DNA of 60,401 bases from an uncultured Thermoplasmatales archaeon (GTDB lineage: Archaea; Thermoplasmatota; Thermoplasmata; Thermoplasmatales; GCA-001856825): positions 1-60,401 of the forward strand of contig CAYMEF010000003.1 in assembly GCA_964389625.1 (NCBI GenBank), in the 5' to 3' direction. Made by a program: the position numbers and the translations under genes. Below are positions 20,792-39,964 of the stretch, in pieces (positions within the stretch are counted from its first letter, which is position 1; each line of letters opens with the position of its first letter). The notes under the pieces were generated by a model, which did no database searches, was not told the origin of the DNA, and saw only the letters and a program-made list of their open reading frames with translations.

Positions 20792-21712
20792 ATGGCTACG
20801 ATCTCAACGAGGGTTGGTAACTTTTCATTGGAAACTCCAGTCATACTTGCGAGCGGGATTCTCGGTGAAACATCGGGGTCGATCCTTCGTTCTCTTAGGT
20901 CTGGCGCCGGAGCAGCAGTTACTAAATCCATTGGTGTCTCCGAGAGGAAGGGTTACCAGACACCCGTTATATCGGAAATAAAGACGGGACTGCTCAACGC
21001 TGTCGGTCTCTCGAATCCGGGAATAGACAACTTCGTGGAGGAGTATAGAACCTTCCCAGAAAAGAAGAGAACCATCGTTTCCATATTCGGTGGAAACGTT
21101 GAAGAATTTGTCAACCTAGCGGTGAAGGTGGAAGCCGCCGGTTTCGATAAGGTCGAGTTGAACCTCTCTTGCCCGCACGTAGGCGGTGTGGGGTCCGAGG
21201 TGGGACAGGACCTGGTCATGGTCGAGGAGATCATATCTGAAATCAGAAGAAAGACCAACCTCCAGATATGGGCTAAACTGACTCCTAACGTCACAGACAT
21301 TATTTCACTCGCAAAGGCGTCAGAGAGGGCGGATGCCTACGTTCTAATAAACACGGTAAGAGCAATAGGGGTCGAGATATATTCCAGAAAGTTTTCACTC
21401 GCAAACGTGGTGGGAGGGTATTCAGGGCCCGGTATCAAACCGGTTGCACTCCGGGCAGTATACGATGTGTACAGGGAGACGGACAAGGACATAGTTGGCG
21501 TCGGTGGCATCACAAGCTGGGAGGACGCAATCGAGTTCTTCTTGGTTGGCGCGAGGGCCATACAGGTAGGTACTGCGATACTCTATGAGGACTATCAAGT
21601 GTACAACAAGATCAACTCTGGCATCAGGGGATACCTCGATAGCGAGGGGTTTGAAGCGCTGGAGGATATAGTGGGGGTGATGATGAAAGATGCTCCACTC
21701 AAAGGTAACTGA
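20792..21712 (+). CDS. pyrD: Dihydroorotate dehydrogenase family 1B catalytic subunit
   Basis: ASG, VTKS, NAVGLSNPG, ELNLSCPH, KLTPN, INT, GGYSG, GVGGI. Confidence 0.95.
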   Translation: MATISTRVGNFSLETPVILASGILGETSGSILRSLRSGAGAAVTKSIGVSERKGYQTPVISEIKTGLLNAVGLSNPGIDNFVEEYRTFPEKKRTIVSIFGGNVEEFVNLAVKVEAAGFDKVELNLSCPHVGGVGSEVGQDLVMVEEIISEIRRKTNLQIWAKLTPNVTDIISLAKASERADAYVLINTVRAIGVEIYSRKFSLANVVGGYSGPGIKPVALRAVYDVYRETDKDIVGVGGITSWEDAIEFFLVGARAIQVGTAILYEDYQVYNKINSGIRGYLDSEGFEALEDIVGVMMKDAPLKGN

Positions 21713-22439
21713 AATAGTCAAGGAGAACAAGGACGTCTTCACACTCAAATTCAATTCCGACATAGTCGCCAGCCCGGGCCAGTTCGTAATGCTCTGGGTT
21801 CCGGGAGGGAAGGAGATTCCGATGTCTCTATCAAGCACAGCGAATCCATTTTCAATAACGTTCAGGACGTTTGGAGTGACTACAAAAACCCTGTCACAAC
21901 TGAAGGTTGGCGATAGACTCTACTACAGAGGACCCTACGGGAATTCCTATCCAAACCCTACGGGCCGGGTTGCATATGTTGCAGGGGGGACTGGACTAGC
22001 ATCGCTTCACGCGATGATTTCAAAACACGAAGGAGATGTCTACGCAGGTGTAAGGACGAGGGAGGATCTCTTTCTGACCAGGGAAGGGTACAAGATTGCA
22101 ACGGACGATGGTTCTGCTGGTTTCAGGGGCACGGTAATCGACTTGTTCGTTCCGCACGTAGATGAATACGATTACGTCTATGTCTGCGGTCCCGAACAGA
22201 TGGTGAAGTCTCTTCTTGACAGAGTCGACAGAGCGACGAGAGCGAAAGTTTACATCTCGCTCGAGAGGCTCATGAAGTGTGGAGTTGGAATTTGCGATAG
22301 CTGCAGCATAAACGGACTCCGGGTGTGCAAGGACGGGACCATATTTGGCATGGACGATGTACTGGGAATGTCTGAGTTCGGAGTCTACAAGAGGAACGAG
22401 TCTGGTAAGATAGAATTGTTCGTAAACGGCAAGAGGTGA
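21690..22439 (+). CDS. pyrK: Dihydroorotate dehydrogenase electron transfer subunit
   Basis: PGQFVMLW, RGPYGN, GGTG, CGP, MKCGVGICDSC...C [2Fe-2S] motif; adjacent to pyrD. Confidence 0.92.
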   Translation: MLHSKVTEIVKENKDVFTLKFNSDIVASPGQFVMLWVPGGKEIPMSLSSTANPFSITFRTFGVTTKTLSQLKVGDRLYYRGPYGNSYPNPTGRVAYVAGGTGLASLHAMISKHEGDVYAGVRTREDLFLTREGYKIATDDGSAGFRGTVIDLFVPHVDEYDYVYVCGPEQMVKSLLDRVDRATRAKVYISLERLMKCGVGICDSCSINGLRVCKDGTIFGMDDVLGMSEFGVYKRNESGKIELFVNGKR

Positions 22440-24523: not shown

Positions 24524-24622
24524 ACTACTAAAATGTGCTATTGGCTATAACAGTTGTTACCAAGCTGAGGCTCCTCGATGAAGCATTGTTTATTATTCTA
24601 TACGAACTCGGCATGTTTGAAA

Positions 24623-25183
24623 ATGATTTCGCTCGTATTTGTCAAAGAGAGCCGGCGATTACCTGGAAAACATCTCTTAGACTTCTGCGGAGAGCCCATG
24701 CTGAAAAGGATCTGTAGGATTCTGGAAGGAAGCGGTCAGTTCGAGCGAGTCGTGGTCTACTCAAAATATCTAGACCTCCGACTCGATGGGTGCAACATCG
24801 AAAGAGACAGCTCTGGAGGTACGCTCATCGATTCGATACTGAGTGCCTTGGACCACTACGGGACCTTTCTAGCAGTTGGAGGAGACATGCCTCTCATAGA
24901 CGGAGACCTTGTGAAATCGTTCGTGGAGAGGTATCACAATAAACCAATAGCCGCTACAGATTTTGAGGGGACTATAGAGCCTCTTTTGGCGATATACGAT
25001 CGCTCGGTCAGGGAAGAAATGGAGAAATTTTCCAACGGCAGCAAGCGGATTTTCCCATTTCTGGAGAAGAGGTTTGATCTCTTCAAGGTGGATAAGATCT
25101 CTAGCCTGAAACTCTTCAACGTCAATACCATGTATGACCTGGAACGAGCCAGATTTCTGGCCAAGTGTGAAGGGGTAAGATAA
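24623..25183 (+). CDS. mobA: Molybdenum cofactor guanylyltransferase MobA-like
   Basis: SRRLPGKH, GGDMPLI, EPLLAIY, FNVNT..DL; directly upstream of the FDH gene. Start at ATG 24623 preferred. Confidence 0.8.
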   Translation: MISLVFVKESRRLPGKHLLDFCGEPMLKRICRILEGSGQFERVVVYSKYLDLRLDGCNIERDSSGGTLIDSILSALDHYGTFLAVGGDMPLIDGDLVKSFVERYHNKPIAATDFEGTIEPLLAIYDRSVREEMEKFSNGSKRIFPFLEKRFDLFKVDKISSLKLFNVNTMYDLERARFLAKCEGVR

Positions 25184-25213
25184 CTGTAAATACGCTGCGG
25201 CGATTAAGTCAAA

Positions 25214-27226
25214 GTGTCTGTACTAACCGTTTGCCCTTACTGCGGTACCGGTTGCCAGATCATTCTAAATGACCAAGGGGCCGGTGAGAGAGTGATAGGA
25301 TACTCTAAGTCGCCCGTGAATGAAGGGAAACTGTGCATCAAGGGCTACTCGGGCCTGTCCTACAATTTCTCAAGGGATCGGTTGAAGTATCCTCTGATCA
25401 AGAGAAAGGGGGAGTTCGTGAGAGTTTCCTGGGAAGCCGCCCTGGAGGAAACATCAAGAAGAATGCTTGAAATCATTGGAAAGTACGGCCCGGATTCTGT
25501 TGCTTTCCAGTCCTCCGCTAAGTGTACCAACGAAGAGAACTTTCTAATGCAGAAGATCGCGAGGCTGGTCGGTACAAACAACATCGACCACTGTGCAAGA
25601 AGCTGTCACAGTCCAACTGCACTGGGGTTGATAAACACTCTGGGGGCAGGAGCTGCCACTGGCTCAATCAAGAGCCTTGAGAGTGCGAGGACATTTTTCG
25701 TAATAGGATCCAACACGACTGAGCAACACCCCATAATAGGGACCAAGGTTCTGAACGAAAGGAAGAGGGGGAAGAACCTCATCGTTGCCGATCCCAGAAG
25801 GACGCAACTGGCGGAAGCTGCATCGATTCACCTTCAGTTCAACCCGGGCACAGACATCGCTCTATTGAATTCATTGATGTACGTTATAATTGAAGAACAC
25901 CTGGAGGATGCCAACTTCATAAATGAAAGAACTGTTGGGTTCCCGGCATTCAAGAACGAGATAATGAAATATCCTCCGGAAGTCACGGGGAGTATCACTG
26001 GCATTGGGCCAGAAAAGTTGAGAGAAGCCGCCGAAACGATAGCGAAAGAGAGACCAACATCTCTGCTCTACGCTATGGGCATTACGCAGCACATCCACGG
26101 AACAGAAAACGTGATGTCAGTCTCCAACCTCGCGCTCCTGACCGGAAACATTGGTGTCAGAGGGTCGGGAATTTTTCCTCTGAGGGGGCAGAACAACGTG
26201 CAGGGCTCTTCCGATATGGGTGCACTCTCTGAGTGGTACCCAGGATACGTTCCTGTCGATTCCCCGAGGGTGAAGTCGTTTGAGGATATGTGGAAGAAGA
26301 AGTTGCCCAGGAAAAAGGGACTGACTCTCTCTGAAATGTTCGACTCTGCCGCAGAAGGGAGCCTGAAAGCAATATATGTTATGGGTGAAAACCCACTAGT
26401 CACGGAAGCAGCAATAAGTGACGTTGAGAACGGTATTGAAAACCTTGAGCTGTTCGTTGTTCAGGACATATTCCTTACCCTCACGGCAGGAATGGCCGAC
26501 ATAGTTCTGCCCGCCACTACCTCCCTGGAGAAAGATGGTACATTTACCAACACCGAGAGGAGGATACAAAAGATCAGCAAGGTGTATGAGGCTCCAGGAG
26601 AGGCAAGACCCGACTGGTGGATACTCGCAGAGATAGGCAAGAGGATAGCCAATACCGGTGACTATGGCTCGCCAGAAGACATTTTTAACGAGATAAAAAG
26701 GGCGGTCCCAAGCTACTCTGGAGCGACTTACGAGAACATTTATCCGAGAGGAAAACAGTGGCCAGTTGGTGTTGACAGCCCCGACGGAACCGAGATACTT
26801 CATACGAAATCGTTCCCCATCGGTAGGGGAAGGCTGGTTCCTATTGCCTATGGTCCTCCCGCTGAAGCAGTAGACGAAGAGTACAACATGATTATGACTA
26901 CGGGAAGGAATTATTTTCATTTCCACTCTGGGACGATGAGCAGGAGAACAGACATTCTGGAACGAGAATCTCCCGAACCATACGTTGAATTAAGCAGTGA
27001 AGATGCAACTCAACTCAATGTAAGGAACTCTCAGACGATTACGATCGAGTCGAGGCATGGTTCCATAAGGGCGAAGGCAAGGGTGACCGACAGGATCCCA
27101 CGAGGGATAGTCTTCGTTCCATTCCACTTCGACGAATCAAGGGTCAACAGGCTCATAGGAAAGAATCTGGATCCGTATTCCAAGATACCGGAGTTCAAGG
27201 TGGTTGCTGTGAGGTTGGTGAAGTGA
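25214..27226 (+). CDS. fdhF: Formate dehydrogenase alpha subunit (Mo/W-bis-PGD, Cys ligand)
   Basis: CPYCGTGC...C [4Fe-4S], SAKCTNEE, NIDHCARSCHSPT (Cys, not Sec), LRGQNNVQG, EKDGTFTNTERR, IPEFK. Confidence 0.95.
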   Translation: MSVLTVCPYCGTGCQIILNDQGAGERVIGYSKSPVNEGKLCIKGYSGLSYNFSRDRLKYPLIKRKGEFVRVSWEAALEETSRRMLEIIGKYGPDSVAFQSSAKCTNEENFLMQKIARLVGTNNIDHCARSCHSPTALGLINTLGAGAATGSIKSLESARTFFVIGSNTTEQHPIIGTKVLNERKRGKNLIVADPRRTQLAEAASIHLQFNPGTDIALLNSLMYVIIEEHLEDANFINERTVGFPAFKNEIMKYPPEVTGSITGIGPEKLREAAETIAKERPTSLLYAMGITQHIHGTENVMSVSNLALLTGNIGVRGSGIFPLRGQNNVQGSSDMGALSEWYPGYVPVDSPRVKSFEDMWKKKLPRKKGLTLSEMFDSAAEGSLKAIYVMGENPLVTEAAISDVENGIENLELFVVQDIFLTLTAGMADIVLPATTSLEKDGTFTNTERRIQKISKVYEAPGEARPDWWILAEIGKRIANTGDYGSPEDIFNEIKRAVPSYSGATYENIYPRGKQWPVGVDSPDGTEILHTKSFPIGRGRLVPIAYGPPAEAVDEEYNMIMTTGRNYFHFHSGTMSRRTDILERESPEPYVELSSEDATQLNVRNSQTITIESRHGSIRAKARVTDRIPRGIVFVPFHFDESRVNRLIGKNLDPYSKIPEFKVVAVRLVK

Positions 27227-28140
27227 ATTACCTGCTGAACAGGATAGAGATTGAGAACCTTTTTCACGAACTCTCAACAGAGTTTGAAACATTTGGGGCC
27301 GTAGAGACGGATGGTGAGGTGGTCTTTGAAAGGGTAGCGAACTTCGAGAGCGTGTCAGAGTTAAGGTCAAGGTATGCACCCAAGGAATTCCTGATAAGAA
27401 GAAACGAGAACGTTCTCGTGCTGAAGGAGGAACAGGAGAGGGCTGTGTTTGGTATCAAGAGCTGTGATCTTAGGGGGTTCTATCTGATGGACAGACAGGT
27501 ACTTGGGAAGGATCCCTTCTACACCGAGAGGAGGGAAAAAACGCTGTTCGCAAACTTCGTTTGTAACGAACCCTGTGAGGGTGGGTTCTGTTCCTCATTC
27601 GGTGGACCCGTTCTTGACGAATACGATATTCAGATACTGAGAGAGGGAGACGCGTTTCATGTGATGGTATCAGACAGGTATGTCAGGTTCTTCGGGTCAT
27701 ACAAGAGAGAGGGCAATGACTTCTTTGCTGCCTTCAGGGAGCGGTTCAATGAGAAGGCCAGGAAGCTACCGGTGGATGGTCTGGAGAACAGAATGAAATG
27801 GAATTCTGGGCTGTGGAAAGAGTTTGCGTCACAGTGTATATCCTGCGGTGCTTGCAACTTCAATTGCCCCACATGTTACTGCTTCGATCTCTACGACGAC
27901 GGGGAAGAGAGGAAGAGGGAATGGGATTCATGCATACTTTCTGGATTCACCTCATCTTCCGCCGGAAACATACGCAGTGGGCTCGATGAGAGGCTGCGGC
28001 AGAGGTTCTATCACAAGTTCGTTTATTTCAAGAAGTCCCAGGGAGAGTACCTCTGCACCGGATGCAATAGGTGTGTGGAAGACTGTCCCGTTGGGATAGA
28101 TATAAAGGAGGTGATTGCCCACGATTACTCCAAGGAATGA
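27223..28140 (+). CDS. Sulfhydrogenase beta / AsrA-like 4Fe-4S subunit
   Basis: GIKSCD, CISCGAC...CPTCYC, REWDSC, R.RQRFYHK, CTGCNRC...CPVGID; GTGA overlap with the FDH gene. Confidence 0.88.
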   Translation: MNYLLNRIEIENLFHELSTEFETFGAVETDGEVVFERVANFESVSELRSRYAPKEFLIRRNENVLVLKEEQERAVFGIKSCDLRGFYLMDRQVLGKDPFYTERREKTLFANFVCNEPCEGGFCSSFGGPVLDEYDIQILREGDAFHVMVSDRYVRFFGSYKREGNDFFAAFRERFNEKARKLPVDGLENRMKWNSGLWKEFASQCISCGACNFNCPTCYCFDLYDDGEERKREWDSCILSGFTSSSAGNIRSGLDERLRQRFYHKFVYFKKSQGEYLCTGCNRCVEDCPVGIDIKEVIAHDYSKE

Positions 28141-28906
28141 TTACCTTCCGAGGTACATGAGGATCACAAGAACAGTAGAAGAATCTCCCGACGTATTCAC
28201 TATTTGTCTCGATGAACAGAACGACGGAAGTTCGGGACAATTCTACATGGTTTCCGTACCGGCTACTGGGGAGGCAGCGATTTCTGTAGCAGCTGGTCAT
28301 GGAAGGAAGCTCGAATTCACAATCAGGAGAATCGGTACGGTCACTGGTCGAATCAAGGGCCTTGAAGAAGTGGGAGTCAGAGGACCATACGGAACCTCAT
28401 GGCCGTGGAGGGAGTACGACGAAATAGTTGCCATTGCAGGAGGAGTAGGGATGCCCCCGATAAAGAGCCTCATAGAAGAAATGACAGATTCAGGGAGGCA
28501 GGACAGACTCGAGGTACTATACGGTGCAAGGACGCCATCCGACATCCTGTACAAGGATAGGGTAGGTAACTGGCTCAAGGAGATTGACCTGCACCTGACT
28601 GTGGACAGAGAAGACCCCTCGTGGAGAGGCCACGTTGGATTTGTTCCATCGCTGCTGAAGCAGACCCACAAGAGCAGAGATGCTGCCCTGTTTGTAATAG
28701 GTCCGCCGCTAATGATGATGAACACGATCAAGGAAGCACTGAACCAGGGCTTCAGAGAAGAGAGAATATTCCTGTCACTCGAGCGAAGGATGGAGTGCGG
28801 AATCGGTGTCTGCGGGCACTGTAACGTCGGGGAATTCTACGTCTGTGAGGATGGCCCTATTTTCCAGTATGGCCGGGTAAAAGGTCTGCCAGAACTGTTC
28901 CTCTAG
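28115..28906 (+). CDS. Sulfhydrogenase gamma / AsrB-like FAD/NAD(P)-binding [2Fe-2S] subunit
   Basis: GQFYMV...GEAAIS, RGPYG, GGVGMPP, YGARTP, LERRMECGIGVCGHC...VCEDGP. Confidence 0.88.
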   Translation: MPTITPRNDYLPRYMRITRTVEESPDVFTICLDEQNDGSSGQFYMVSVPATGEAAISVAAGHGRKLEFTIRRIGTVTGRIKGLEEVGVRGPYGTSWPWREYDEIVAIAGGVGMPPIKSLIEEMTDSGRQDRLEVLYGARTPSDILYKDRVGNWLKEIDLHLTVDREDPSWRGHVGFVPSLLKQTHKSRDAALFVIGPPLMMMNTIKEALNQGFREERIFLSLERRMECGIGVCGHCNVGEFYVCEDGPIFQYGRVKGLPELFL

Positions 28907-30759
28907 ACCTCTATCCCAAGTTCCAGCAGAACCCTGTCTGCGGGTTTGCCGTCCCTTTCAATTCCCACCTCTACCAGGTATTCACTCCTGAGCGTATTGT
29001 AATCGACAGTTACCCCCTTAGTTGGGCCTCCTTGGAGCGGAGGGTTTCCGATCACCCTTCCGGGCGCCTCTACATCCCACGCGTTCACCCCAGCCTTGTA
29101 GTTGAAAAGATATCTGGTGACCTGTATCCTCTTTCCTGCATCCATTAGTTCGTCCGCCGTCAAATCCCACCCCATGACTGCCTTGAAGAGCCTCAGGTAT
29201 GGATAGCTGTTGGGCCATACGGCAGTAGAGAATTGACACATACCTGTCGAGTTCATGATTTGCATGCCGTAGACGGATAATGCCTGCATCTTTCCCTTCC
29301 CGGAGTATTCGTACCTTTCGATCTTTCTTCCTGACCACCCTTCGTATTCGAAAGGAAGTGTGAGCTTCCCCCCTTCATCGAAGCCGATACCTCCCGCGGT
29401 ATGCCGTCCAGGCGTTGGATCGGTCATATAGGTCGTTGCCAGGCTTGGCATTAGTTTCGGATCGTGCATCGGCAGGTCCTGGCCATGAATGTGCATCGCA
29501 AAGATTTCACTCCCCTTCCCTATCGCTTCAGCCGCTCTAGCCGCCCCATTGCAGAGCAGGGAACCAATTCCTTCTCCGCTAGCGATCTTCCCTACCAGTT
29601 TTATCATAGCATCCCCGTCCCCAAAACCTAACCTGAACCCAACTTCTCTTTCCGTCAGGATTCCCCTCTCGAAGCATTCGTTCGCGAAGGCGATTACTGC
29701 GCCGGTCGAAATGATGTCCAGTCCCTCCCTGTTGCAGAGTTCAAATGCCATGGCAACTGCATCTAGATCCGATACGAGGTTCAGTCCGCCGAACGCACCG
29801 GTTCCTTCGTATTCCAGCCTGTGACCTTCGAGTGGACCGTACTTTGTGTTTCTTTTGACGTGGCCGCCGCAAGCCAGAGTGCACTGTGCGCACCCATATG
29901 ATCGCAGCTTGTCTTTTGCAATTTCCTTTTCGTTTATCCTGGCCGCACTATCCTCTCCGTAGTCCACTAGACCAACTCCACTCCAGTTCTTGATCGGAGT
30001 GTCGCCGTTCAAGTGCCCCGACTCGGTGATCTCGGTGGTACCGTATAACTGCCACGGTCTAGCCAGCTCAATATTCTTGCCGAACAGGACCTGTATGTCC
30101 CTGTTAGTCAGCCTGAGCATCTCAGCATCAGCAGGTTCACTCCTTTTCGTACCCCTGGTTATAATCCCCTTCAGCTTTTTTGAGCCCATCACAGCACCTA
30201 GTCCAGAGCGTCCGGCAGCCCGTCCATAGTCGTTCATGATTGAGGCCATTAGCATCTTCTTTTCACCGGGTACCCCTATGACCAGCGCCTGACCTTTCGG
30301 TTCGATCTTCTTCAGGTAGTCTTCTGTTTCGTATGCATTCTTCCCCCACACTTCATTCGCGTCTTCGAGGGAATAAACACCATCCACCAGTTTGAGGAAC
30401 ACGGACTTGTTGGATATCCCTTTGAAGAACACCGCATCGAATCCGGAGTTCTTGAGCTCTGGTCCGAATTTCCCACCACAGTTAGCGTCCCCCCAGGTTC
30501 CGGTGTAGGGGGACTTTGCAACCACCTCAAATCTCCCCCCGAGCGGAACGGAGTGACTGTTGAATACACCCGTAATCACACCAAATATGTTGTCTGGTCC
30601 CAGGGGGTCCTCCTTCCCATTCATCTCTCTGTTCAGAATGTAGACGCCGAGTCCATACCCGGTGAGGTATTTCCTGTAGATCTCTTCCGGAATCTGTTCT
30701 TCCTTAAAGCTGGAATCGCTAAGATTCACCCACAATATCCTGCCATTTACTCCAAACAC
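28903..30759 (-). CDS. aor: Aldehyde:ferredoxin oxidoreductase family (tungstopterin) enzyme
   Basis: GRILWVNLS, KSPYTG..GDAN.GG, AAGRSGLGAVMGSKKLK, CAQCTLAC, EYE, GLDIISTG, HDP, GMC.F. Confidence 0.93.
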   Translation of the reverse strand: MFGVNGRILWVNLSDSSFKEEQIPEEIYRKYLTGYGLGVYILNREMNGKEDPLGPDNIFGVITGVFNSHSVPLGGRFEVVAKSPYTGTWGDANCGGKFGPELKNSGFDAVFFKGISNKSVFLKLVDGVYSLEDANEVWGKNAYETEDYLKKIEPKGQALVIGVPGEKKMLMASIMNDYGRAAGRSGLGAVMGSKKLKGIITRGTKRSEPADAEMLRLTNRDIQVLFGKNIELARPWQLYGTTEITESGHLNGDTPIKNWSGVGLVDYGEDSAARINEKEIAKDKLRSYGCAQCTLACGGHVKRNTKYGPLEGHRLEYEGTGAFGGLNLVSDLDAVAMAFELCNREGLDIISTGAVIAFANECFERGILTEREVGFRLGFGDGDAMIKLVGKIASGEGIGSLLCNGAARAAEAIGKGSEIFAMHIHGQDLPMHDPKLMPSLATTYMTDPTPGRHTAGGIGFDEGGKLTLPFEYEGWSGRKIERYEYSGKGKMQALSVYGMQIMNSTGMCQFSTAVWPNSYPYLRLFKAVMGWDLTADELMDAGKRIQVTRYLFNYKAGVNAWDVEAPGRVIGNPPLQGGPTKGVTVDYNTLRSEYLVEVGIERDGKPADRVLLELGIEV

Positions 30760-31367: not shown

Positions 31368-32591
31368 GTGTCAAGTAAACTAATTGCAATCATTCTCGCG
31401 TTGGTTCTCGTTGTAGGAGTCGGAGTTGGTTTTGCGGTGGGGCACTTCACTAGTGCTCTGCCAGAGAAAATGCTCCCTGTAACTGTTTTTGCAGCTGGTT
31501 CATTGACTTCTGTACTGGGAACTGACTTCTATCCACAGTTTGAGAACTATACTGGCATTAATGTCGCTCCCACTTTTGGAGGGTCAGTCTCGGGTGCAAG
31601 CGAAGTGGACACGGGGGCGCCATACGACGTCTACATATCTGCGGCTGCAGGAGTGATACCTCAGTACATGTTCCCAAACAAGACCGCAAACTGGATGGTC
31701 ATTTTTGCCTCTAACGAGATGGCGATTACGTGGCTCAACAGCAGCCTTAACATTTCAACCCCCTACTGGTTCGAGAGCCTCACCTCACCGGGCATAAAGG
31801 TGGGCGTGTCAAACGCAAGCCTGGACCCGAGCGGTTTTCAGGCGATTGAAATGATAAAACTAGCCGGTCTGCTTTACACGCAATACAACAACACGACTCA
31901 GCTCGGAAAGAGCGGCAAGACGATAGGTCAGTTCGTCAGAGATGCGTGGAACAACGATTCCGGCCTTTACGGGAAGTACAACAAAGCATGGAACGGTTGG
32001 TTTGGCCCGAATGGTACTCTTGACAAGGACGGCATGGGAAATGGTTACCCCGCAAATTACTCCCTCGCACTGTACTATCAGATGTTCAACTATTCCTACA
32101 GGCACGGCGACCTTGTTCCCACGACAGAGGAGTACGGACTGGACGCCTACCTCAAGACTGGAGCAGTGGACTATGCGCTTACCTATAGATCTCAGGCGAT
32201 TAACCAGAAACTTTACTACTTTCAGAACGCCAATGGTGGTAACGGTCTTTCCGGCTGGATCAATCTCGGGAACACTAGCGGCGCTGAGGTAGAATTCTAT
32301 GGAGCTGTTACTACGGCTGGGCCCGGATACAGCAACATAGGCGATTTCCCGGGCGGACCCATACTATACTCTGCAACCATCGTGAGTTCCTCAAAGAACA
32401 CCAACGAGGCACAACAGCTCATCTATTATCTTATAACCAGCCTTGGAGACTCCCTGCTGAAAAAGTCGGACTTCAATCCGATAGGCACTCCCTACTTATA
32501 CTCTCTAGTTTCCGGGTCACCTTCCTTCCTGAACGGAATCACGGTTCCGATACCTAGTTATATGCCGACATCATCTTACAAAGAAGTATGA
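31368..32591 (+). CDS. wtpA: Tungstate/molybdate ABC transporter substrate-binding protein (WtpA-like)
   Basis: N-terminal anchor, VFAAGSL, FGGS, DVYISA, FASNEM, DPSGFQ, DYALTYRSQA, PILYSATI; many sequons. Confidence 0.82.
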   Translation: MSSKLIAIILALVLVVGVGVGFAVGHFTSALPEKMLPVTVFAAGSLTSVLGTDFYPQFENYTGINVAPTFGGSVSGASEVDTGAPYDVYISAAAGVIPQYMFPNKTANWMVIFASNEMAITWLNSSLNISTPYWFESLTSPGIKVGVSNASLDPSGFQAIEMIKLAGLLYTQYNNTTQLGKSGKTIGQFVRDAWNNDSGLYGKYNKAWNGWFGPNGTLDKDGMGNGYPANYSLALYYQMFNYSYRHGDLVPTTEEYGLDAYLKTGAVDYALTYRSQAINQKLYYFQNANGGNGLSGWINLGNTSGAEVEFYGAVTTAGPGYSNIGDFPGGPILYSATIVSSSKNTNEAQQLIYYLITSLGDSLLKKSDFNPIGTPYLYSLVSGSPSFLNGITVPIPSYMPTSSYKEV

Positions 32592-33379
32592 GGAGGAGTA
32601 ATTCACTTTACTATCTGTTTCTTCCTTTTTTTGCAATCTATATCCTTTTTCTCATTATTCCAATATTTAGGACCCTAACGTTTCAGAGTCTTTCTTATAT
32701 CATGAGGGATACCTCCTCTGGTATACTTCAGAGCCTGGAATACACCTATCTGCTGGCTCTCGTTGTTTCGCTGATCTCAATTGGGTTCTCGATCCCCTAC
32801 GTCTACTTTGTCTCCCGGAACAGGCACATTGTTGTAAGGTCTCTCGATGCACTCTTGGAACTACCCATAATGATACCCCATACGGTAGTCGGAATAATGA
32901 TGCTCATAACTTTCCTCCCCACGATGCCGATCGGTAAGTTGATTTCAAGCATATTCCCTAGTTATCAATTTCTAGATACCGTACTGGCAGTCGTGGTGAC
33001 GCTCTTGTTCCTATCGTCAGCTTATGCAATAAGGGCAGTCCAGATATCGTACTCCAGTGCAGTTATGAAATACGAAGACATAGGTCGTACCCTCGGTATG
33101 TCTCCGTTCTACAGTTATCTCGTAATCGGAATCCCAATGATGGGAAGAGCGTTGCTTCGGGGCCTGGTCCTCTCTTGGGCTCGGTCAATATCGGAGGTTG
33201 GCAGTCTCCTGATAGTCGCATTTTCTATTCTTCCGAGTGGGATACATATTGCAGGTGTATTGATCTTTTACCAGTTTACTTCAGGGAGCCTCACCTATGC
33301 GGTAGCCTCTTCAGTCATCCTGATATTCACAGGTCTGGTCACGCTGTTGGTGATAAAGGTTCTGGAGCGCGAAAGATGA
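32588..33379 (+). CDS. wtpB: Tungstate/molybdate ABC permease
   Basis: LPIMIPHTVVG, YEDIGRTLG (EAA loop), WARSISEVG. Confidence 0.88.
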   Translation: MRRSNSLYYLFLPFFAIYILFLIIPIFRTLTFQSLSYIMRDTSSGILQSLEYTYLLALVVSLISIGFSIPYVYFVSRNRHIVVRSLDALLELPIMIPHTVVGIMMLITFLPTMPIGKLISSIFPSYQFLDTVLAVVVTLLFLSSAYAIRAVQISYSSAVMKYEDIGRTLGMSPFYSYLVIGIPMMGRALLRGLVLSWARSISEVGSLLIVAFSILPSGIHIAGVLIFYQFTSGSLTYAVASSVILIFTGLVTLLVIKVLERER

Positions 33380-34269
33380 TCCGCCTCAGAAACTATGGGG
33401 TTAAAAGGGGTGAATTTACCATAGACATTCCGGAGCTTAACTTAGTTGGAAGGAGGAACTTCATCATCGGGAAGAACGGTTCTGGAAAGACAACAATTCT
33501 GCAGTCTCTGGCGGGTCTGATAGAGAGCTCCGGGGTCTTTGAAGTAAATGGTGTCGACCTGTCGGAATTGCCTCCGGAGCGAAGAAGGGTGGGATACTTG
33601 CCTCAGGATCTGCTGCTATTTGGTAACATGACAGTTGATAACAACCTGAAATCGTCGATAAAGTACGGTAGGGGGAAAACGAGCATCTACGCGGAACTAG
33701 TTGCAAGGATGGATCTAACCAAGCTCCTGAAGAAGAGAACTGGCGACATCTCATTCGGGCAGGCACAGAGGGTAGCGATAGCGAGGGCCATAATATCCAA
33801 CCCCGCGGTACTCTTAATGGACGAGCCCTTTTCCTTTCAGGACGAGATATCAAGGCTTGGGCTCATAAGTCTTATCGATGAATTGTCTACAAAATACGAC
33901 TTCGATTATCTATATGCGACTCACAACTCCAGGGACCTCGAAACCGGTTTTTCCAGTCTGGTCTCGATAGATGGAGGACGAGTGATCGAGGCAGTCGAAT
34001 CTGTATCTATGATCCAACACTACAGAACCCTATCACTGCTCGACTATAGGAACCTCGTCTCCATCGATGGCCACTACTACGTGATAAACTGGGGTGCAAT
34101 GGAGTTCAGCGATACCGAGGGAAGCGAGTACGATATCGTGGGAATAGAGCCAAACAAGTATCTGAGGTTCAAGATAGGAGATAACTACCACTTTTCTACC
34201 CTGGCAGATTCGCCCACTGGGAGGTTTGTTAGAGTGAACACAGAGAAGGCCAGGGAGATCGTCTTTTAG
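33376..34269 (+). CDS. wtpC: Tungstate/molybdate ABC ATPase
   Basis: GKNGSGKTT, LPPERRRVGYLPQ, LLMDEPF, THN. Start at ATG 33376 (ATGA overlap with the permease stop). Confidence 0.88.
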   Translation: MIRLRNYGVKRGEFTIDIPELNLVGRRNFIIGKNGSGKTTILQSLAGLIESSGVFEVNGVDLSELPPERRRVGYLPQDLLLFGNMTVDNNLKSSIKYGRGKTSIYAELVARMDLTKLLKKRTGDISFGQAQRVAIARAIISNPAVLLMDEPFSFQDEISRLGLISLIDELSTKYDFDYLYATHNSRDLETGFSSLVSIDGGRVIEAVESVSMIQHYRTLSLLDYRNLVSIDGHYYVINWGAMEFSDTEGSEYDIVGIEPNKYLRFKIGDNYHFSTLADSPTGRFVRVNTEKAREIVF

Positions 34270-34302
34270 CAAACGTTTTAGGATTGCATTCAATTTTTGT
34301 GC

Positions 34303-35496
34303 ATGGAGCTGAGATCGTTCATCGACCTCGATGAAGCAATAAGTATGGGGGCGAAATACAGACCAAAATTGAAGAGCAAGAAAGTTCCCGCCCTTGAAGC
34401 GGTTGGTAAATTTTCTTCCAGCGATGTCGAGTCGCCCTCGGACTTTCCACCACACGATCGGAGTGCGATGGACGGCTACGCCCTCAGTTCCTCCGAAACT
34501 ATCTCGTCGAGCAGGACCAATCCTTCCCACTTTAGTGTTATAGGAAGGTTCTATCCTTCATCCAGAGTGCTCCCGTCTATCAGGAAGGGAGAGGCAGCTA
34601 GTGTAACGACTGGGTCTAAGATTCCACGAGGGGCAGATTCTGTAGCGATGTTGGAAGAAACAAACGAAGACGAGAATGGTGTGAGCGTGTACGCACCAGT
34701 AAGGAAGTTCCAGAACGTTAGTAGGACGGGCGAAGATCTGAAGAAGGGATACCGCATCCTGAAGCGTGGTGCCTCAATAAGTCCGCCCCACGTTTCTGCC
34801 CTCCTGGAGTGCGGGATGAAGAGGGTAGGAGTAATATCACTCTCAATAGGGGTGATATCCACTGGAGACGAACTCGTCGAGGGGTTGATTAGAAACTCAA
34901 CTCAACCAATGTTGATGGCCTACTTCCAAAGAAAGGGATTTGAAACAGTTGGGCATGAACCAGTGAGAGATCGGGAATCTGAGATAGAGACTGCCCTCGC
35001 TAGGATCCCAGAGGACATAATCATAGCCACAGGGGGAACGGGTCCTGGAGAGAGCGACCTACTGCCTTCCGTGATCCAAGGGAATGGGGGGATCGTGTTC
35101 AGGGGCCTCAAGATAAGACCGGGAAGAACTACTTCTTTTGGCGTGTTCAGGGGCAAACCCGTCTTCATGGTATCGGGTCTCCCAGTTGCCGCTCTAATCG
35201 CGTCGGAGAACTTCATACTCAGAGTGATATCCAAATGGTTCGGATTGGTGTTAGGGGAGAAGGAGTACAGGGAGGGGATTCTTGGGAGGAGCGTTGTGAA
35301 CACTCTTGGCTTCAGGAGCTTCGTCAGAGTCAAGGTTCAAAATGAAGCAAGTGGGACAGTGGTCTATCCGTCTAGGGTTACTGGGTCAGGGGTCATTTAC
35401 TCAATGATAGACGCCGACGGAATCCTCGTAATCGACGAAAATTCTGAAGGGATACAGGAGGGGGAAAGAGTGACATACGAAGTGATTAGGTGGTGA
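34303..35496 (+). CDS. moeA: Molybdopterin molybdotransferase MoeA
   Basis: PPHDRSAMDGYA, TG..IP.GADSV, STGDEL, TGGTG.G..D, IRPG, GLP. Confidence 0.93.
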   Translation: MELRSFIDLDEAISMGAKYRPKLKSKKVPALEAVGKFSSSDVESPSDFPPHDRSAMDGYALSSSETISSSRTNPSHFSVIGRFYPSSRVLPSIRKGEAASVTTGSKIPRGADSVAMLEETNEDENGVSVYAPVRKFQNVSRTGEDLKKGYRILKRGASISPPHVSALLECGMKRVGVISLSIGVISTGDELVEGLIRNSTQPMLMAYFQRKGFETVGHEPVRDRESEIETALARIPEDIIIATGGTGPGESDLLPSVIQGNGGIVFRGLKIRPGRTTSFGVFRGKPVFMVSGLPVAALIASENFILRVISKWFGLVLGEKEYREGILGRSVVNTLGFRSFVRVKVQNEASGTVVYPSRVTGSGVIYSMIDADGILVIDENSEGIQEGERVTYEVIRW

Positions 35497-35497
35497 G

Positions 35498-37393
35498 ATG
35501 GTAAAGGTATTCCACTCTCTGAAGACTGCGGATGAAGCAAGACAACTACTCTCTATAAGTCTAGGTGCTAGAATAACCGACGGTCTAGTGACCATCTCCG
35601 ATGCTGCAGGTTACGTATCTTCTGAAGATATTTTTTCTGCAAATGACGTTCCGCCTTTCGATAGGTCCGAGGTCGACGGTTATGCACTGAGCTACAGATC
35701 AATAGGCGGTGCAGATGAGGACAACCCGGTCGAGCTTAAGGTCGCCCGGGAGATAGAGATCGGGAAGAGGCCGGACATTGAAGTAAAGGAGGGAGAAGCA
35801 GCCTACATATCCACGGGATCGATGATACCCAGAGGGGCCGATTCAGTGGTAATGGTTGAGTATACGTCGAGAAGCGGTGAAAAGGTCAGCATTTTCAGAT
35901 CAGTGAGTCCGGGTGAAAATATTGCTCATGCGGGCTCAGATTTTTTTGTCAGCGAATATCTTGCAAGAAGAGGAAACATGATAACTCCCGAGGGAGTTGC
36001 ACTTCTCGCTTCTTCTGGTATCTCCAGAGTGAAAGTGAAGAACAAAATTAGGGTCGGGATCGTTTCAATAGGCAACGAACTTACTATCCCGGGGAAACGC
36101 CTTAAGCTGGGTAAAATCTTTGACAGCAATTCGTACTATTTCAAGTCGACACTCGAGAGGACTGGACTCACTCAGTGCGAGCTCCTAGGAACGTTGCCAG
36201 ACGAAAGGGAAGAGATAGAGGAGTTTGTCAGAGATAGTACCAGTAGATACGATCTGCTTGTATCTTCTGGCTCAACCTCTGCAGGTTTCCACGACATTCT
36301 CTACAGGGTAATCGAAGACCTTGGTGGGGAAATGCTTTTCCACGGTCTATCTATCAAACCCGGCAAGCCCACTTTTGCAGCCACCTTCGAAAAATGTGTA
36401 TTTTTGGGTATGCCTGGTTTCCCACTCTCCGCAGGAGCCGTACTGAGGTACATAGTTGTGCCGGCATTAAAGTCAGCATATGGGCAGCAGGACGATGCAT
36501 TGGAATACGTCTCACTGCCTTTTCGGATTAATGCTGAAAGGGGGAAAGACCACATCTTGCCAGCGATAATTGGTAGAAGTGGAAGAGCCTTTCCGATATT
36601 CGGGGAGTCGGGTTCCATCAGCCGACTTGCGTATGCGGACGGGTTCATATTGCTCGAACACTCAAGGAACTACTACGAAAGGGACGAGCCCGTTCCGTTC
36701 TTTCCACTGGAGAAGGGAAAGCGAGAGATCCTCTTCATAGGCTCAAACGATCCCATGATGGAGCGAATACTGTTCGAATCTGTCAAGTTCCCAACGATCA
36801 TCAATGCGGGTTCCTGGGGGGGATTCGAGGCGGCGAAGATCGGCGAGGCAGACGTTTCAGGTGTTCACCTGCTCAAGAATGGGGAGTACAATAAGTTCTT
36901 GCTGAAGGAAAGCGGAGGGGGGAATCTGGTTTTGGTTAGGGGCTTCTCAAGGGCGCAGGGGCTTGTGTCAAGAACTGGCATACATTCGTTCCATCAGATC
37001 AGAGATAAGGATCTCTTGTTCGTTAACAGGAACAGGGGCTCAGGAACTCGTGATCTCATTGAGATCGAGATTGAAAAGGAGCTCGGCCCAAATTTCGATA
37101 GAGATAGAATCAGAGGGTATCGCTGGGAGGCAAAGAGCCATGCGGCGGTCGCAAATGCGGTGAAGCAGGAACGAGGGGACGCGGGGGTCTCGATAGAATT
37201 TTATGCGAAGAGGTTGAATCTTAAGTTTCACAAGATAAGGGATGAAAACTACGATCTCCTCATGCAGAGAAGCTTCTACGAATCGGAAGTGGGTGGACTT
37301 CTAGTAAAACAACTAAGAGGTTCCAGGAAGTACTCGAAGGAATTTCCGGGATATAGCATTCCTAGTAATGTTGGCGATTTAATCCAATCGTGA
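35498..37393 (+). CDS. moeA: MoeA fused to a C-terminal PBP/LysR-type substrate-binding domain
   Basis: PPFDRSEVDGYA, SGSTSAG, IKPGKP, GMPGFP; C-terminal IGSND, GSWGG, GVHLL, NRNRGSGTR, ENYD. Confidence 0.92.
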   Translation: MVKVFHSLKTADEARQLLSISLGARITDGLVTISDAAGYVSSEDIFSANDVPPFDRSEVDGYALSYRSIGGADEDNPVELKVAREIEIGKRPDIEVKEGEAAYISTGSMIPRGADSVVMVEYTSRSGEKVSIFRSVSPGENIAHAGSDFFVSEYLARRGNMITPEGVALLASSGISRVKVKNKIRVGIVSIGNELTIPGKRLKLGKIFDSNSYYFKSTLERTGLTQCELLGTLPDEREEIEEFVRDSTSRYDLLVSSGSTSAGFHDILYRVIEDLGGEMLFHGLSIKPGKPTFAATFEKCVFLGMPGFPLSAGAVLRYIVVPALKSAYGQQDDALEYVSLPFRINAERGKDHILPAIIGRSGRAFPIFGESGSISRLAYADGFILLEHSRNYYERDEPVPFFPLEKGKREILFIGSNDPMMERILFESVKFPTIINAGSWGGFEAAKIGEADVSGVHLLKNGEYNKFLLKESGGGNLVLVRGFSRAQGLVSRTGIHSFHQIRDKDLLFVNRNRGSGTRDLIEIEIEKELGPNFDRDRIRGYRWEAKSHAAVANAVKQERGDAGVSIEFYAKRLNLKFHKIRDENYDLLMQRSFYESEVGGLLVKQLRGSRKYSKEFPGYSIPSNVGDLIQS

Positions 37394-37455
37394 AGCGTTG
37401 AAATTACATTCTCTCGACTAGAAAAAGTGATAAACTCAGAGAGGTTCTCCATCAA

Positions 37456-38295
37456 ATGTTCGAGAACATTGATGGCAGACTGGACATGAGCCTGTTCATG
37501 TCTACCTCTTTGAAAAACATCGACAGCTCCTTCTTTTCAGGAACAGAATCGGTACCAATGAGTTTGCACCTTCACAAGGGAGAAACTGCGATCAACTTCT
37601 TCATAGAAAGAGGGTCCAAATATAGCACTGAACTGATGAAGTACTACAGCCACATCGTAATAGGGGACTACATAATGGTAACTAAGAAGGTTGAACTACC
37701 TGTCGTAAGAGTACTCTACGAGAACATCTCTTCTATAGGGACGATGGTTTTTGGAGGTCTCTACGCAAAGGGCGAAGACCTCATGATCGATTACAGGTTT
37801 CATAATTCTGACAGATCCAAGGTCGCTGAAATCGTGAAACTCCTGGTCTCTTTGAACACGGAATTCAAGATCGGAGGAATGGGAAAATCGAAAGGACTCA
37901 GGGACAAGCTCTCCGAGATCGCATCAAGGTTGCCCCTGACTGCAGTCAGGTTCGGATACAGGGACGGCGGTTCTGAGAACCAAATACTGGAATGGAGGGG
38001 AGCATCGGACCCGTACGGAGCAGTCTCTTTTGGCGAAGATGGGAAAGGCAAGATCGCAAAATTGGACATATCCAAATCGGTTATCGCTCCATTCCTTCGA
38101 TCGATACTGAAGGACCAGATTCAACCGGCCGGCTATTTCGAGGAGCATATCAAGGGTAGGGTGCACGCTCTTTCTATACTTCCATCATTTCTGGTGAAAC
38201 CGTTCCTTCTCCGAATGTTTGATAAGGCGGAGTCATCGGGTGGTATCGAGATCGAGAGCATTGAACCATTTGAAGAAGTCAGAGAAAGTCTGTAA
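37456..38295 (+). CDS. Hypothetical soluble protein, probable paralog of 8307..9245
   Basis: 279 aa ATG ORF with YRFHNS motif; similar length and pattern to 8307..9245. Confidence 0.7.
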   Translation: MFENIDGRLDMSLFMSTSLKNIDSSFFSGTESVPMSLHLHKGETAINFFIERGSKYSTELMKYYSHIVIGDYIMVTKKVELPVVRVLYENISSIGTMVFGGLYAKGEDLMIDYRFHNSDRSKVAEIVKLLVSLNTEFKIGGMGKSKGLRDKLSEIASRLPLTAVRFGYRDGGSENQILEWRGASDPYGAVSFGEDGKGKIAKLDISKSVIAPFLRSILKDQIQPAGYFEEHIKGRVHALSILPSFLVKPFLLRMFDKAESSGGIEIESIEPFEEVRESL

Positions 38296-38332
38296 TTCGG
38301 CTATACTGCAAATTCTGTCATCTCTATTTGTC

Positions 38333-38815
38333 TCATTCCTTGCGAATTTCGTGGTCGACGTGTCCCATTATGGAAGTTATAGTCGAAAAGGCCAAGGCAG
38401 TGGCATCGGGTGAACCCGGAACACAATATATCTGCTTTCCATCCTTGATGAAGAGGGATGCATTCGATAGGTAAGCAAATCTTTCGTGGGATTCTGATCT
38501 GAAAAGTTCACCGAACCCGACCATCTCCTTTTCAGAAATGCTCCTGATGCTCTCGATCGTCACATCTCTCCTGCTCGGCCCTGTGCCTCCAACGAACACA
38601 AAAATGTCATATTTTGCATGGGAATAGAATGAATCCAGTATCTGTTCTTCATCGTCACTGCATACAACCCTGTCAACCTCATGCGAATCATTCAGGAACA
38701 GGAGCCTCAGGTTGTTACCTGAAGTGTCTGTTTTCTCCGTTCTCGATGTTGAGACAGTGACGATCAGTATCTTGAATTTTTTATTGGATTCTTCTCTATG
38801 AACCATTCTTATCAA
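38333..38815 (-). CDS. moaB: Molybdopterin adenylyltransferase MoaB/MogA
   Basis: TVSTSR..KTDTSG, GGTG.S.RDVT.E, GFGELFR, PGSP. Confidence 0.9.
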   Translation of the reverse strand: MIRMVHREESNKKFKILIVTVSTSRTEKTDTSGNNLRLLFLNDSHEVDRVVCSDDEEQILDSFYSHAKYDIFVFVGGTGPSRRDVTIESIRSISEKEMVGFGELFRSESHERFAYLSNASLFIKDGKQIYCVPGSPDATALAFSTITSIMGHVDHEIRKE

Positions 38816-38925
38816 TCCCCTTCCCTTATCTCCCTTATGGCATCAACGGTCGTTGACTTCAGGGAGATGAAACCCTTTGCAGCTGCTTCCCTATTCACAA
38901 TTTCTCTATCACTTACATCTATCAT
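38812..38925 (-). pseudogene. Internally deleted moaC relic (37 codons)
   Basis: MIDVSDREIVNREAAAKGFISLKSTTVDAIREIREGD* aligns with the N-terminus of intact MoaC at 39965..40426 (MIDIGDKQIVKREAVASGYIKLKRTTLKAIGE); its stop overlaps the moaB TTG. Confidence 0.8.
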
Positions 38926-38954
38926 ACAAGAGGATCAACTAAAGATGAGGACGT

Positions 38955-39773: not shown

Positions 39774-39964
39774 TTCACGTGACAATTGTTTCCTATTATA
39801 GAACTGTTGGGAGTTTGAGGGAAGCTCCGCTCGTAGGTGAAACTTCACTCTATGATCCAGGATCCTTACAGTTTTGTGAAGATGCAGTGGTCTCTATTGG
39901 AATAGAAGGTGTTGACGATCTTCTCCCAGATCGTCCTTGCAAACTGTTGTGTGGACCACGAAAT

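Follow-up and report, generated by a model that had tools for sequence, protein, structure and literature searches.

A predicted soluble formate:NAD(P)+ oxidoreductase of Thermoplasmatales in which a hydrogenase-type electron-transfer module would serve a formate dehydrogenase catalytic subunit

Two genome reports have placed a formate dehydrogenase (FDH) gene beside a pair of small redox subunits whose better-known catalytic partner is missing. In 'Iplasma', homologues of asrA and asrB without asrC lie next to fdhF (Yelton et al., 2013, PMC3750248), and in Desulfurivibrio dismutans an FdhA gene adjoins those for HydB and HydG while HydA and HydD are absent, an arrangement in which, according to a proposal of 2025, NAD(P)H would donate electrons to FdhA (PMC12142623). 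FDH genes within the molybdopterin clusters of mine-drainage Thermoplasmatales had already been noted (Yelton et al., 2011, PMC3197636). Here we describe a cluster of this kind on a 60,401-nucleotide stretch of contig CAYMEF010000003.1 (the window, meaning this whole stretch) from a metagenome-assembled genome (MAG), 65.7% complete, of an uncultured Thermoplasmatales archaeon. The cluster comprises fdhA, a gene for an iron-sulfur (Fe-S) protein (beta) and a gene for an FAD/NAD(P)/[2Fe-2S] protein (gamma), and we consider it likely that the three products form a soluble heterotrimeric formate:NAD(P)+ oxidoreductase. The Iplasma and D. dismutans clusters share with ours the three-gene arrangement, the missing partners and the conclusion that the small subunits serve the FDH, and both accounts are genome-based only, without biochemistry. 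The idea is thus already in print. We found no purification, assay or structure of an enzyme of the FdhA-HydB/AsrA-HydG/AsrB type in open-access papers and preprints, so that the architecture is not, within that literature, the already characterised family that the original prediction for this locus had named as a reason to abandon it; the arrangement has been described, is biochemically uncharacterised, and would be new relative to the biochemically known FDH classes. Added here, beyond what the two reports give, are the relation of beta to FdhB/FrhB, a clade that crosses domains, a modelled interface and an odd start of gamma.

According to the open reading frame (ORF) calls for the window, these genes and a mobA-like gene 5′ of fdhA are all read in one direction:

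24578..25183, plus strand: mobA-like nucleotidyltransferase gene (57.6 bits on PF12804, cut-off 27)
25214..27226, plus strand: fdhA, GTG start, 670 amino acids (aa), with a match to TIGR01591
27223..28140, plus strand: beta Fe-S gene, GTG start, 305 aa, with a match to PF17179 (Fer4_22)
28115..28906, plus strand: gamma FAD/NAD(P)/[2Fe-2S] gene, TTG start as called, 263 aa, with matches to PF00175 and PF10418

The original prediction had described the four genes as co-oriented, with a GTGA common to the stop of fdhA and the start of beta, and both features are there: the resulting 4-base overlap can be read directly in the window, and the same overlap occurs in 19 of 26 relatives' loci in our ORF calls. 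It had also listed NiFe hydrogenase, AsrC and FdhB as missing from the window, and a Pfam scan of 50 window ORFs indeed gave no match to a NiFe hydrogenase, a sulfite-reductase haem subunit or FrhB/FdhB. The window therefore carries the cluster in the form that defines it here, namely fdhA, then a Fer4_22 gene, then a PyrK-like FAD/NAD(P)/[2Fe-2S] gene, and neither a hydrogenase nor AsrC.

FdhA scored 791.1 bits on TIGR01591 (cut-off 666.25), which places it among metal-dependent FDH alpha subunits. Across 27 sequences, C7, C10, C14, C41, K43, C131-H132 and R324 were invariant, giving FdhA the four N-terminal cysteines for a [4Fe-4S] cluster, the active-site Cys-His pair and the conserved arginine expected of such an enzyme; we take C131-H132 and R324 to be the likely equivalents of SeCys140-His141 and Arg333 of E. 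coli FdhH. Because the frame has no in-frame stop, FdhA is of the Cys type and not the selenocysteine type. These features mark it as a predicted Cys-type FDH catalytic subunit with a Mo- or W-bis-pyranopterin guanine dinucleotide centre. The nearest solved chain is 9t1s_L, the alpha subunit of an F420-dependent FDH (E 8.6e-188), and the 670-aa protein has no N-terminal NuoG-like extension. In one relative (L127, G025:C2, 1486-3502) the fdhA match came in two pieces in different frames (query residues 1-70 and 60-669), possibly through a frameshift or an assembly error in that relative.

Beta was recognised by PF17179 (97 bits, cut-off 27), and its best named models, AsrA (131.9 bits, cut-off 323.15) and ShyB (119.4, cut-off 690), both fell short, as did HydB (81.1 against 750). 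Thirteen cysteines were invariant in the 27 sequences and two more were kept in at least 90%, and these 15 would be enough for about three clusters. A structural model built from a 27-row alignment (predicted local distance difference test score, pLDDT, 88.2; predicted template-modelling score, pTM, 0.87) gave the following fold matches:

9nf0_B, beta subunit of Pyrococcus furiosus soluble hydrogenase I (SHI): Z 31.5, 300 residues aligned, root-mean-square deviation 2.5, 25% identity
7bkb_E, FDH beta subunit (F420): Z 15.7, 255 residues aligned
8rvu_E, FDH beta subunit: Z 15.4, 243 residues aligned
several FrhB-type chains: Z 8.3-9.7, 174-190 residues aligned

The match to 9nf0_B is to be read as placing beta in the superfamily only and not as making it a sulfhydrogenase member. 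Both 7bkb_E and 8rvu_E were named "formate dehydrogenase, beta subunit" by their depositors, and a profile of the beta family reached them at E 3.1e-6 and 1.1e-9, respectively, and 9t1s_M, of the F420-dependent FDH, at 5.3e-11. Beta is accordingly predicted to be a poly-Fe-S subunit of the HydB/AsrA/FlxB superfamily with a FrhB/FdhB-like fold, and profile and model together make it a remote relative of FdhB/FrhB, FdhB being the natural partner of FdhA. The earlier description of beta and gamma as standing in "instead of FdhB" is thus half right: no Pfam match to the FrhB_FdhB_N or FrhB_FdhB_C domains was found in beta, which sets it apart from the beta subunits of F420-dependent FDHs, but beta is itself a distant member of that kindred (Z 15.7; profile E 5e-11 to 3e-6).

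Gamma matched PF00175 (NAD_binding_1) and PF10418 (DHODB_Fe-S_bind, the [2Fe-2S] domain of PyrK). Its best named model was AsrB (191.2 bits, cut-off 288.6), ahead of PyrK (164.1, cut-off 224), HydG (134.4 against 600) and ShyC (118.9 against 650), and all four cut-offs were missed. The nearest solved chain was 9nez_C, the gamma subunit of SHI (E 2.2e-36), the subunit to which NADPH is bound in the solved complex 9nf0. By its domains, gamma would be a HydG/AsrB/PyrK-type subunit with FAD, NAD(P) and [2Fe-2S] sites. It is not the PyrK of the cell, because a separate pyrK, a paralogue of gamma, lies 5 kb upstream; there, the genes for dihydroorotate dehydrogenase B (pyrD) and its electron-transfer subunit (pyrK) occupy window positions 20792-22439.

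These assignments put the cluster between several described enzymes. With P. furiosus SHI (group 3b; 9nez, 9nf0) it shares the folds and families of beta and gamma (Z 31.5; E 2.2e-36) and presumably the electron path from an Fe-S chain through [2Fe-2S]/FAD to NAD(P), but the catalytic module here is FdhA and not a NiFe alpha-delta pair; neither the HydB/ShyB nor the HydG/ShyC cut-offs of group 3b sulfhydrogenases were reached, and NiFe subunits were found neither in the window nor, over cut-off, in the genome. AsrABC supplies the best-scoring named models for both small subunits, yet both scores are below cut-off, and searches of the window, its genome and five near-complete relatives turned up no AsrC. 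F420-dependent FdhAB (9t1s; within 7bkb and 8rvu) has the nearest alpha chain, a remotely related FdhB and, as described below, a like predicted docking through the cluster loop of FdhA; the differences are that beta lacks the FrhB_FdhB Pfam domains and that the enzyme proposed here would have a third subunit, with sites for FAD and NAD(P). The NAD+-dependent FDHs of the FdsABG/FdhF2 type have the same proposed net reaction, by way of Fe-S clusters and a flavin, whereas FdhA lacks their N-terminal Fe-S extension of ~250-290 residues (alignments begin at chain residue 254-291), no NuoE- or NuoF-like neighbour was found among the 50 window ORFs scanned, and a PyrK-like fold would here carry FAD as the flavin, where that type is known to have FMN in a NuoF fold. 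Because FdhA is nearest an F420-FDH alpha chain, beta remotely FdhB-like and gamma nearest SHI gamma, the enzyme looks like a cousin of FdhAB, in which, by analogy with SHI, a remote FdhB-like Fe-S protein would hand electrons to a separate PyrK-like FAD/NAD(P) subunit.

The gene order was strongly conserved. Beta was found in 47 of 61 Thermoplasmatales genomes, the window's own included (E <= 1e-10), and at all 29 relatives' loci retrieved beta stood immediately between fdhA, on its upstream side, and gamma, on its downstream side. The synteny check called for at the outset thus met no exception among these 29 loci, and the fdhA-beta-gamma arrangement is far beyond chance. Of the families of the order, labelled f1 to f7 here, f4 and f2 also carry the cluster when longer flanks are considered. 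Among 201 genomes sampled from the class, beta matches of at least 42% identity occurred only in f1, f4 and f7 of the order; all others were at or below 46%, the few above 40% being short partial matches, and no adjacent fdhA was found in five Thermoplasmata genomes outside the order that had full-length beta matches. A scan of public genomes, in which 80 loci were kept out of 461 relatives, had fdhA directly upstream of beta at 10 loci, 7 of them of Thermoplasmata type, 1 from Sulfolobaceae and 2 from Chloroflexota MAGs. One of the Chloroflexota loci has a mobA-fdhD fusion just downstream of the cluster. The window stretch itself turns up in mine-drainage and hot-spring metagenomes, and no RNA run was listed for it.

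Adjacency of this kind could also arise if beta and gamma served a hydrogenase or an AsrC encoded elsewhere and merely adjoined fdhA. Other families of the order do have beta-gamma beside NiFe hydrogenase genes: at 8 loci of f3, f5 and f6 we found real sulfhydrogenase operons, in which beta-gamma are followed by the NiFe small and large subunits. The genome of the window contains a single copy of beta, no NiFe large subunit over cut-off, no PF04432 (FrhB/FdhB) protein and, as its best AsrC match, one of 21.7 bits against a cut-off of 324. Because this genome is incomplete, and a partner could have gone unassembled, we searched five cluster-carrying relatives that are 92-99% complete. The five yielded no NiFe hydrogenase beyond a single N-terminal match of 57 residues in a 402-aa frame; their AsrC matches all stayed below cut-off (best 29.2 bits against 324), and PF04432 was not found in any. 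The genome-wide search for hydrogenase and asrC genes proposed with the original prediction thus returned nothing over cut-off in the window's genome or in the five relatives. With beta in single copy and coupled to fdhA by the 4-base overlap, and with the hydrogenase-linked betas forming a clade apart (see below), a partner elsewhere seems extremely improbable. Two adjacent frames of 370 and 408 aa in a relative (G018:C7:233055-235052) had weak AsrC matches (27.6 and 28.2 bits against 324) and are probably another sulfite/nitrite-reductase-like pair.

We then asked structure prediction for the FdhA-beta pair. The predicted complex scored 0.90, compared with 0.01 for the best of three controls (a 27-row alignment each); at least 91% of the contacts were common to three runs, and partner pLDDT was at least 89. 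The contacts of lowest predicted error joined FdhA 38-42 and 169-184 to beta 203-214 and 287-291, setting the cluster-ligand loop of FdhA around C41 against a beta cluster ligated by C205, C208, C211 and C288. The prediction supports binding of beta by FdhA, short of showing it. Conserved order (29/29), the absence of other partners in five relatives and this score (0.90 against 0.01) together favour the soluble three-subunit FdhA-beta-gamma enzyme that had been predicted from the window.

In such an enzyme, formate would be oxidised by FdhA at a Cys-ligated Mo- or W-bis-pyranopterin guanine dinucleotide centre, and the electrons would leave through the [4Fe-4S] cluster of FdhA to enter the cluster chain of beta. 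They would then pass to the [2Fe-2S] cluster and FAD of gamma, where NAD+ or NADP+ would be reduced, for a net reaction of formate + NAD(P)+ -> CO2 + NAD(P)H. Conversion of the cofactor to its guanine dinucleotide form would fall to the product of the mobA-like gene, and the surrounding genes for tungstate/molybdate transport and molybdopterin synthesis would supply metal and pterin. The gene anatomy, the conservation of the unit, the lack of the other known partners, the fold relations and a predicted FdhA-beta interface are what the data show; that the proteins assemble in vivo, whether NAD or NADP takes up the electrons, which metal is bound and which way the reaction runs are inferred.

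Several points weigh against this assignment. In the calibration of the prediction tool, 116 of 157 solved complexes attained the mark that the FdhA-beta pair reached, as did 2 of 215 mismatched pairs, counts that hold only roughly here because our own alignments were supplied, and the FdhA-beta pair may pass through likeness, because FdhA-FdhB complexes have been solved (7bkb, 8rvu, 9t1s). Gamma was outside the modelled pair, and its contact with beta would follow from homology to SHI. The absences in the window's own genome carry little weight because that genome is only 65.7% complete. The mobA-like gene scored 57.4 on the MobA NCBIfam models, far below their cut-off of 164. FdhD is a sulfurtransferase needed by E. 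coli FdhF; in the genus of the window (g1) it was not found in G000 (65.7% complete), G012 or G018 (93% complete), and among the genomes searched for it only G046 and G049 had it. A preference for NAD or NADP cannot be read from the sequence.

The direction of the reaction bears on a second alternative, that the same complex works physiologically in the opposite direction, reducing CO2 with NAD(P)H to make formate for biosynthesis or as an electron sink. This is what the authors of the D. dismutans report proposed for its FdhA-HydB-HydG (PMC12142623). Metal-dependent FDHs are in general reversible, as is well established, and the original prediction had allowed for the reverse reaction too. 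NAD(P)H-driven CO2 reduction is, however, uphill at standard potentials, and formate oxidation is favoured both because the formate/CO2 couple is more reducing than NAD(P)H and because these are acidophilic heterotrophs without formate-consuming purine enzymes in the searches made. Five genomes, of which four are 93-99% complete, had no match to PurP (PF06973) and, for PurT (TIGR01142), only matches far below cut-off, in searches that did not extend to other formate sinks or to transporters. We regard physiological CO2 reduction as unlikely.

The identity of the acceptor is the point at which the names given to these genes matter. Homologues of beta and gamma are routinely called "sulfhydrogenase (sulfur reductase)" or "anaerobic sulfite reduction protein", and the original prediction had allowed for a formate:S0/polysulfide oxidoreductase, in which beta-gamma would reduce sulfur as reported in vitro for sulfhydrogenase. 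Beta and gamma do share fold and family with SHI beta and gamma, KEGG-style annotation names such genes sulfur reductase (PMC9326234), and some Thermoplasma respire sulfur, as is also mentioned in one report (PMC3750248). The sequence, however, offered nothing that bears on this activity: no sulfur-specific feature was identified in it, beta is far below the sulfhydrogenase cut-offs, and the cluster also occurs in mine-drainage lineages and Chloroflexota that have no link to sulfur respiration. The physiological relevance of sulfur reduction has been doubted even for sulfhydrogenase itself. On this evidence a sulfur-reducing role is highly improbable.

The consequence for annotation is practical, as metagenome surveys of acidic sites take the HydBG pair as a marker of sulfur reduction (PMC9326234). 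If beta-gamma in Thermoplasmatales families f1, f2, f4 and f7 belong to an FDH, as predicted, then marker calls there would overstate sulfidogenic potential and miss formate oxidation. An enzyme of the proposed kind would add to the NAD(P)-linked metal FDHs a class with a PyrK-like FAD module, from thermoacidophiles, of possible interest for CO2/formate biocatalysis; cultured Thermoplasma species carry named beta homologues, and the enzyme could therefore be purified. At the loci of the genus Thermoplasma (g13), beta shares 57-60% and FdhA 65-66% identity with the window proteins. That an FdhA might work with a hydrogenase-type module is not a new idea, which limits the interest of the present case.

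FDH and hydrogenase are not the only settings of the beta-gamma module. The commonest context among the 80 public loci was a Flx-like one, as in FlxABCD, with a second Fe-S protein upstream in 57 loci and MvhD/FlpD in 47. One of the hydrogenase-bearing genomes of f3, f5 and f6 also has such a set (MvhD, second Fe-S protein, beta, gamma), so that one order holds FDH-linked, hydrogenase-linked and Flx-like versions of a single electron-transfer module, a clean natural case of redox-module reuse. The window differs from Flx-like sets in having neither MvhD nor the second Fe-S paralogue.

These sets raise the prospect that formate is coupled to ferredoxin or another protein acceptor, or that the enzyme bifurcates electrons with NAD(P) as one of two partners. 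The nearest non-FDH relatives of beta-gamma in the public loci are the Flx-like sets, often beside HdrA-like genes and linked to bifurcating systems, one Dehalococcoidales locus has a Flx-like set 2.5 kb from fdhA, and the cluster has a conserved neighbour of a family whose products are usually ferredoxin-using, aldehyde:ferredoxin oxidoreductase (AOR). Yet the FDH-type clusters have no MvhD, HdrA or second flavoprotein, they have a single predicted flavin site, in gamma, and the AOR gene is convergent and not co-transcribed. A ferredoxin-linked or bifurcating enzyme is, in our judgement, very unlikely, and NAD(P)+ remains the acceptor that we favour.

Two kinds of Flx-like locus stood out in the public scan. 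A Dehalococcoidales MAG (L092, 3727-10959) encodes, in one direction, MvhD, an Fe-S protein, beta, gamma, an HdrA-like protein, a small ORF and FdhA, a different, Hdr/Flx-linked wiring of FdhA to the same kind of beta-gamma module. In Pseudomonadota and symbiont MAGs (L048, L055, L064, L074, L080, L085 and L091), Flx-like MvhD-FeS-beta-gamma sets are followed by ATP-citrate-lyase-like genes, a Citrate_bind/ATP-grasp_2 gene and then one for a Succ_CoA_lig protein of ~900 aa; several of these are autotroph-like bacteria.

To place the FDH-linked betas among the others, we extracted 117 beta sequences and kept 105 in a tree, having dropped 8 without an assignable partner (mostly at contig ends), 2 over-long sequences (L061 and L093) and 2 identical duplicates; L034, with an fdhA fragment at its contig end, was relabelled as FDH-linked. 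In this quick IQ-TREE analysis, which carries support from the Shimodaira-Hasegawa-like approximate likelihood-ratio test (SH-aLRT) only and includes neither an outgroup nor a verified AsrA, the deepest split set the Flx-type betas (63 rows, SH-aLRT 85) apart from the rest, among which the hydrogenase-linked betas formed one clade (8 rows, SH-aLRT 99) and the archaeal FDH-linked betas another (32 rows, SH-aLRT 96). The two Chloroflexota FDH-linked betas sat on long branches near the base of the side that holds the FDH- and hydrogenase-linked sequences. The partner label changed twice on the tree, the minimum possible, and a tree that held all 34 FDH-linked betas together had a likelihood above that of the free tree and was not rejected (approximately unbiased, or AU, test, p-AU 0.775). 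A tree of 27 FdhA sequences had the same main split as the beta tree (f1 and f7 versus f2, f4, Sulfolobaceae and Chloroflexota), which points to co-inheritance.

From these trees, the FDH-linked module appears to be old and to have been inherited as a unit, with Sulfolobaceae probably having received it in a single transfer. It had been supposed that the enzyme was built in this lineage by swapping the catalytic module; this does not hold, as the FDH-linked betas form an old group of their own, distinct from the hydrogenase-linked betas of the order, and the beta tree and AU test rule out a recent swap. A more inclusive picture, possible though on the whole doubtful, is that of a distinct, old, cross-domain class of soluble NAD(P)-linked metal FDH, found in Thermoplasmatales, a Sulfolobaceae MAG and Chloroflexota, in which beta would bridge FdhB/FrhB and the group 3b diaphorase module and gamma would start on ACG in most Thermoplasmatales, with a CAC/CAT switch in a His codon of beta.

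This last element concerns the start of gamma, which was less simple than the ORF call suggests. An overlap of the beta and gamma genes had been predicted as well, and its existence depends on the start codon: it is 26 bases with TTG 28115 and 20 bases with ACG 28121, and there is none with ATG 28157. We rejected ATG 28157, which is not conserved in relatives, the codons 5′ of it being under protein-level constraint. The candidate initiation site that remains lies inside the 3′ end of beta:

28105..28123, plus strand: probable gamma initiation site, a conserved and perfect Shine-Dalgarno (SD)-like AAGGAGGTGA (28105-28114), 6 bases, then ACG (28121-28123)

Within the last codons of beta, relatives have a strictly conserved AAGGAGGT(G)A, followed by 6 bases and then the candidate start codon, which is ACG in 13, ATG in 4 and ATA in 1 of 18 loci (the window and 17 f1/f7 relatives). 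TTG 28115 lies two codons before the ACG, directly abutting the SD-like sequence. In the gamma frame, codons for N-[DE]-Y-x-P 3′ of the stop of beta are evidently translated, because their third positions vary across relatives. Gamma probably initiates, to judge from this pattern, at the SD-spaced site within the end of beta, often on a non-AUG codon. A +1 frameshift at the stop of beta as the way to make gamma was also weighed and set aside: re-pairing from GAA to AAU would be poor, the stop is TAA and not TGA in 2 of 18 loci, and a plain ATG stands at the SD-spaced site in 4 of 18. Homologous sites occur in loci L113-L132, in many relatives the conserved N-terminal motif of gamma is not preceded by any canonical start, and the ACG/ATG switch amounts to a synonymous change of a His codon (CAC/CAT) in beta.

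At its other end, the cluster is preceded by the mobA-like gene, whose product is probably, going by its family match, a molybdenum cofactor guanylyltransferase. A homologue lies 5′ of fdhA at 16 of 20 f1/f7 loci with longer flanks. The ATG at 24623, which is the internal M16 of the 24578-25183 ORF and the start taken in the original prediction, is the likelier start, because 15 of 16 relatives with a match align only from query residue 7-18 onward.

The genes 3′ of gamma, given here as context, include:

28903..30759, minus strand: AOR-family, tungsten-type aldehyde:ferredoxin oxidoreductase gene (AFOR_N and AFOR_C matches)
31368..34269, plus strand: tungstate/molybdate ABC transporter genes, WtpA-like, WtpB-like and ATPase
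34297-35496: MoeA gene (Pfam match)
35498-37393: gene for MoeA fused to PBP_like (Pfam match)
38333-38815, minus strand: gene for a MoCF_biosynth protein, MoaB/Mog-like (Pfam match)
39965-40426, minus strand: MoaC gene (Pfam match)

The WtpA-like protein scored 105.3 bits on WtpA and the WtpB-like protein 136 on WtpB, both below cut-off, and the ATPase matched ABC_tran. By these matches the fdhA-beta-gamma cluster and the AOR gene sit in a putative pterin-cofactor island, with window positions 31368-40426 around them. The AOR gene is convergent to gamma, the stop regions of the two overlapping by 4 bases, and it is likewise convergent at 22 of 29 relatives' loci; we treat it as context and not as a demonstrated part of the FDH enzyme. 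Together with the nearby Wtp-like transporter it hints at tungsten, without proof.

A few further features of these loci deserve mention. The AOR-family product could carry out an aldehyde-to-acid step that feeds formate, for example formaldehyde oxidation. In two complete genomes of genus g13, fdhD lies a few kb from a frame of ~1000 aa in which the sole match was a weak one to a ferredoxin domain (G046:C1:254983-258787 and G049:C1:449446-453206). In the window itself, a Ta1207-family gene and a gene for an ArsA-like ATPase are interspersed among the cofactor genes of 31368-40426.

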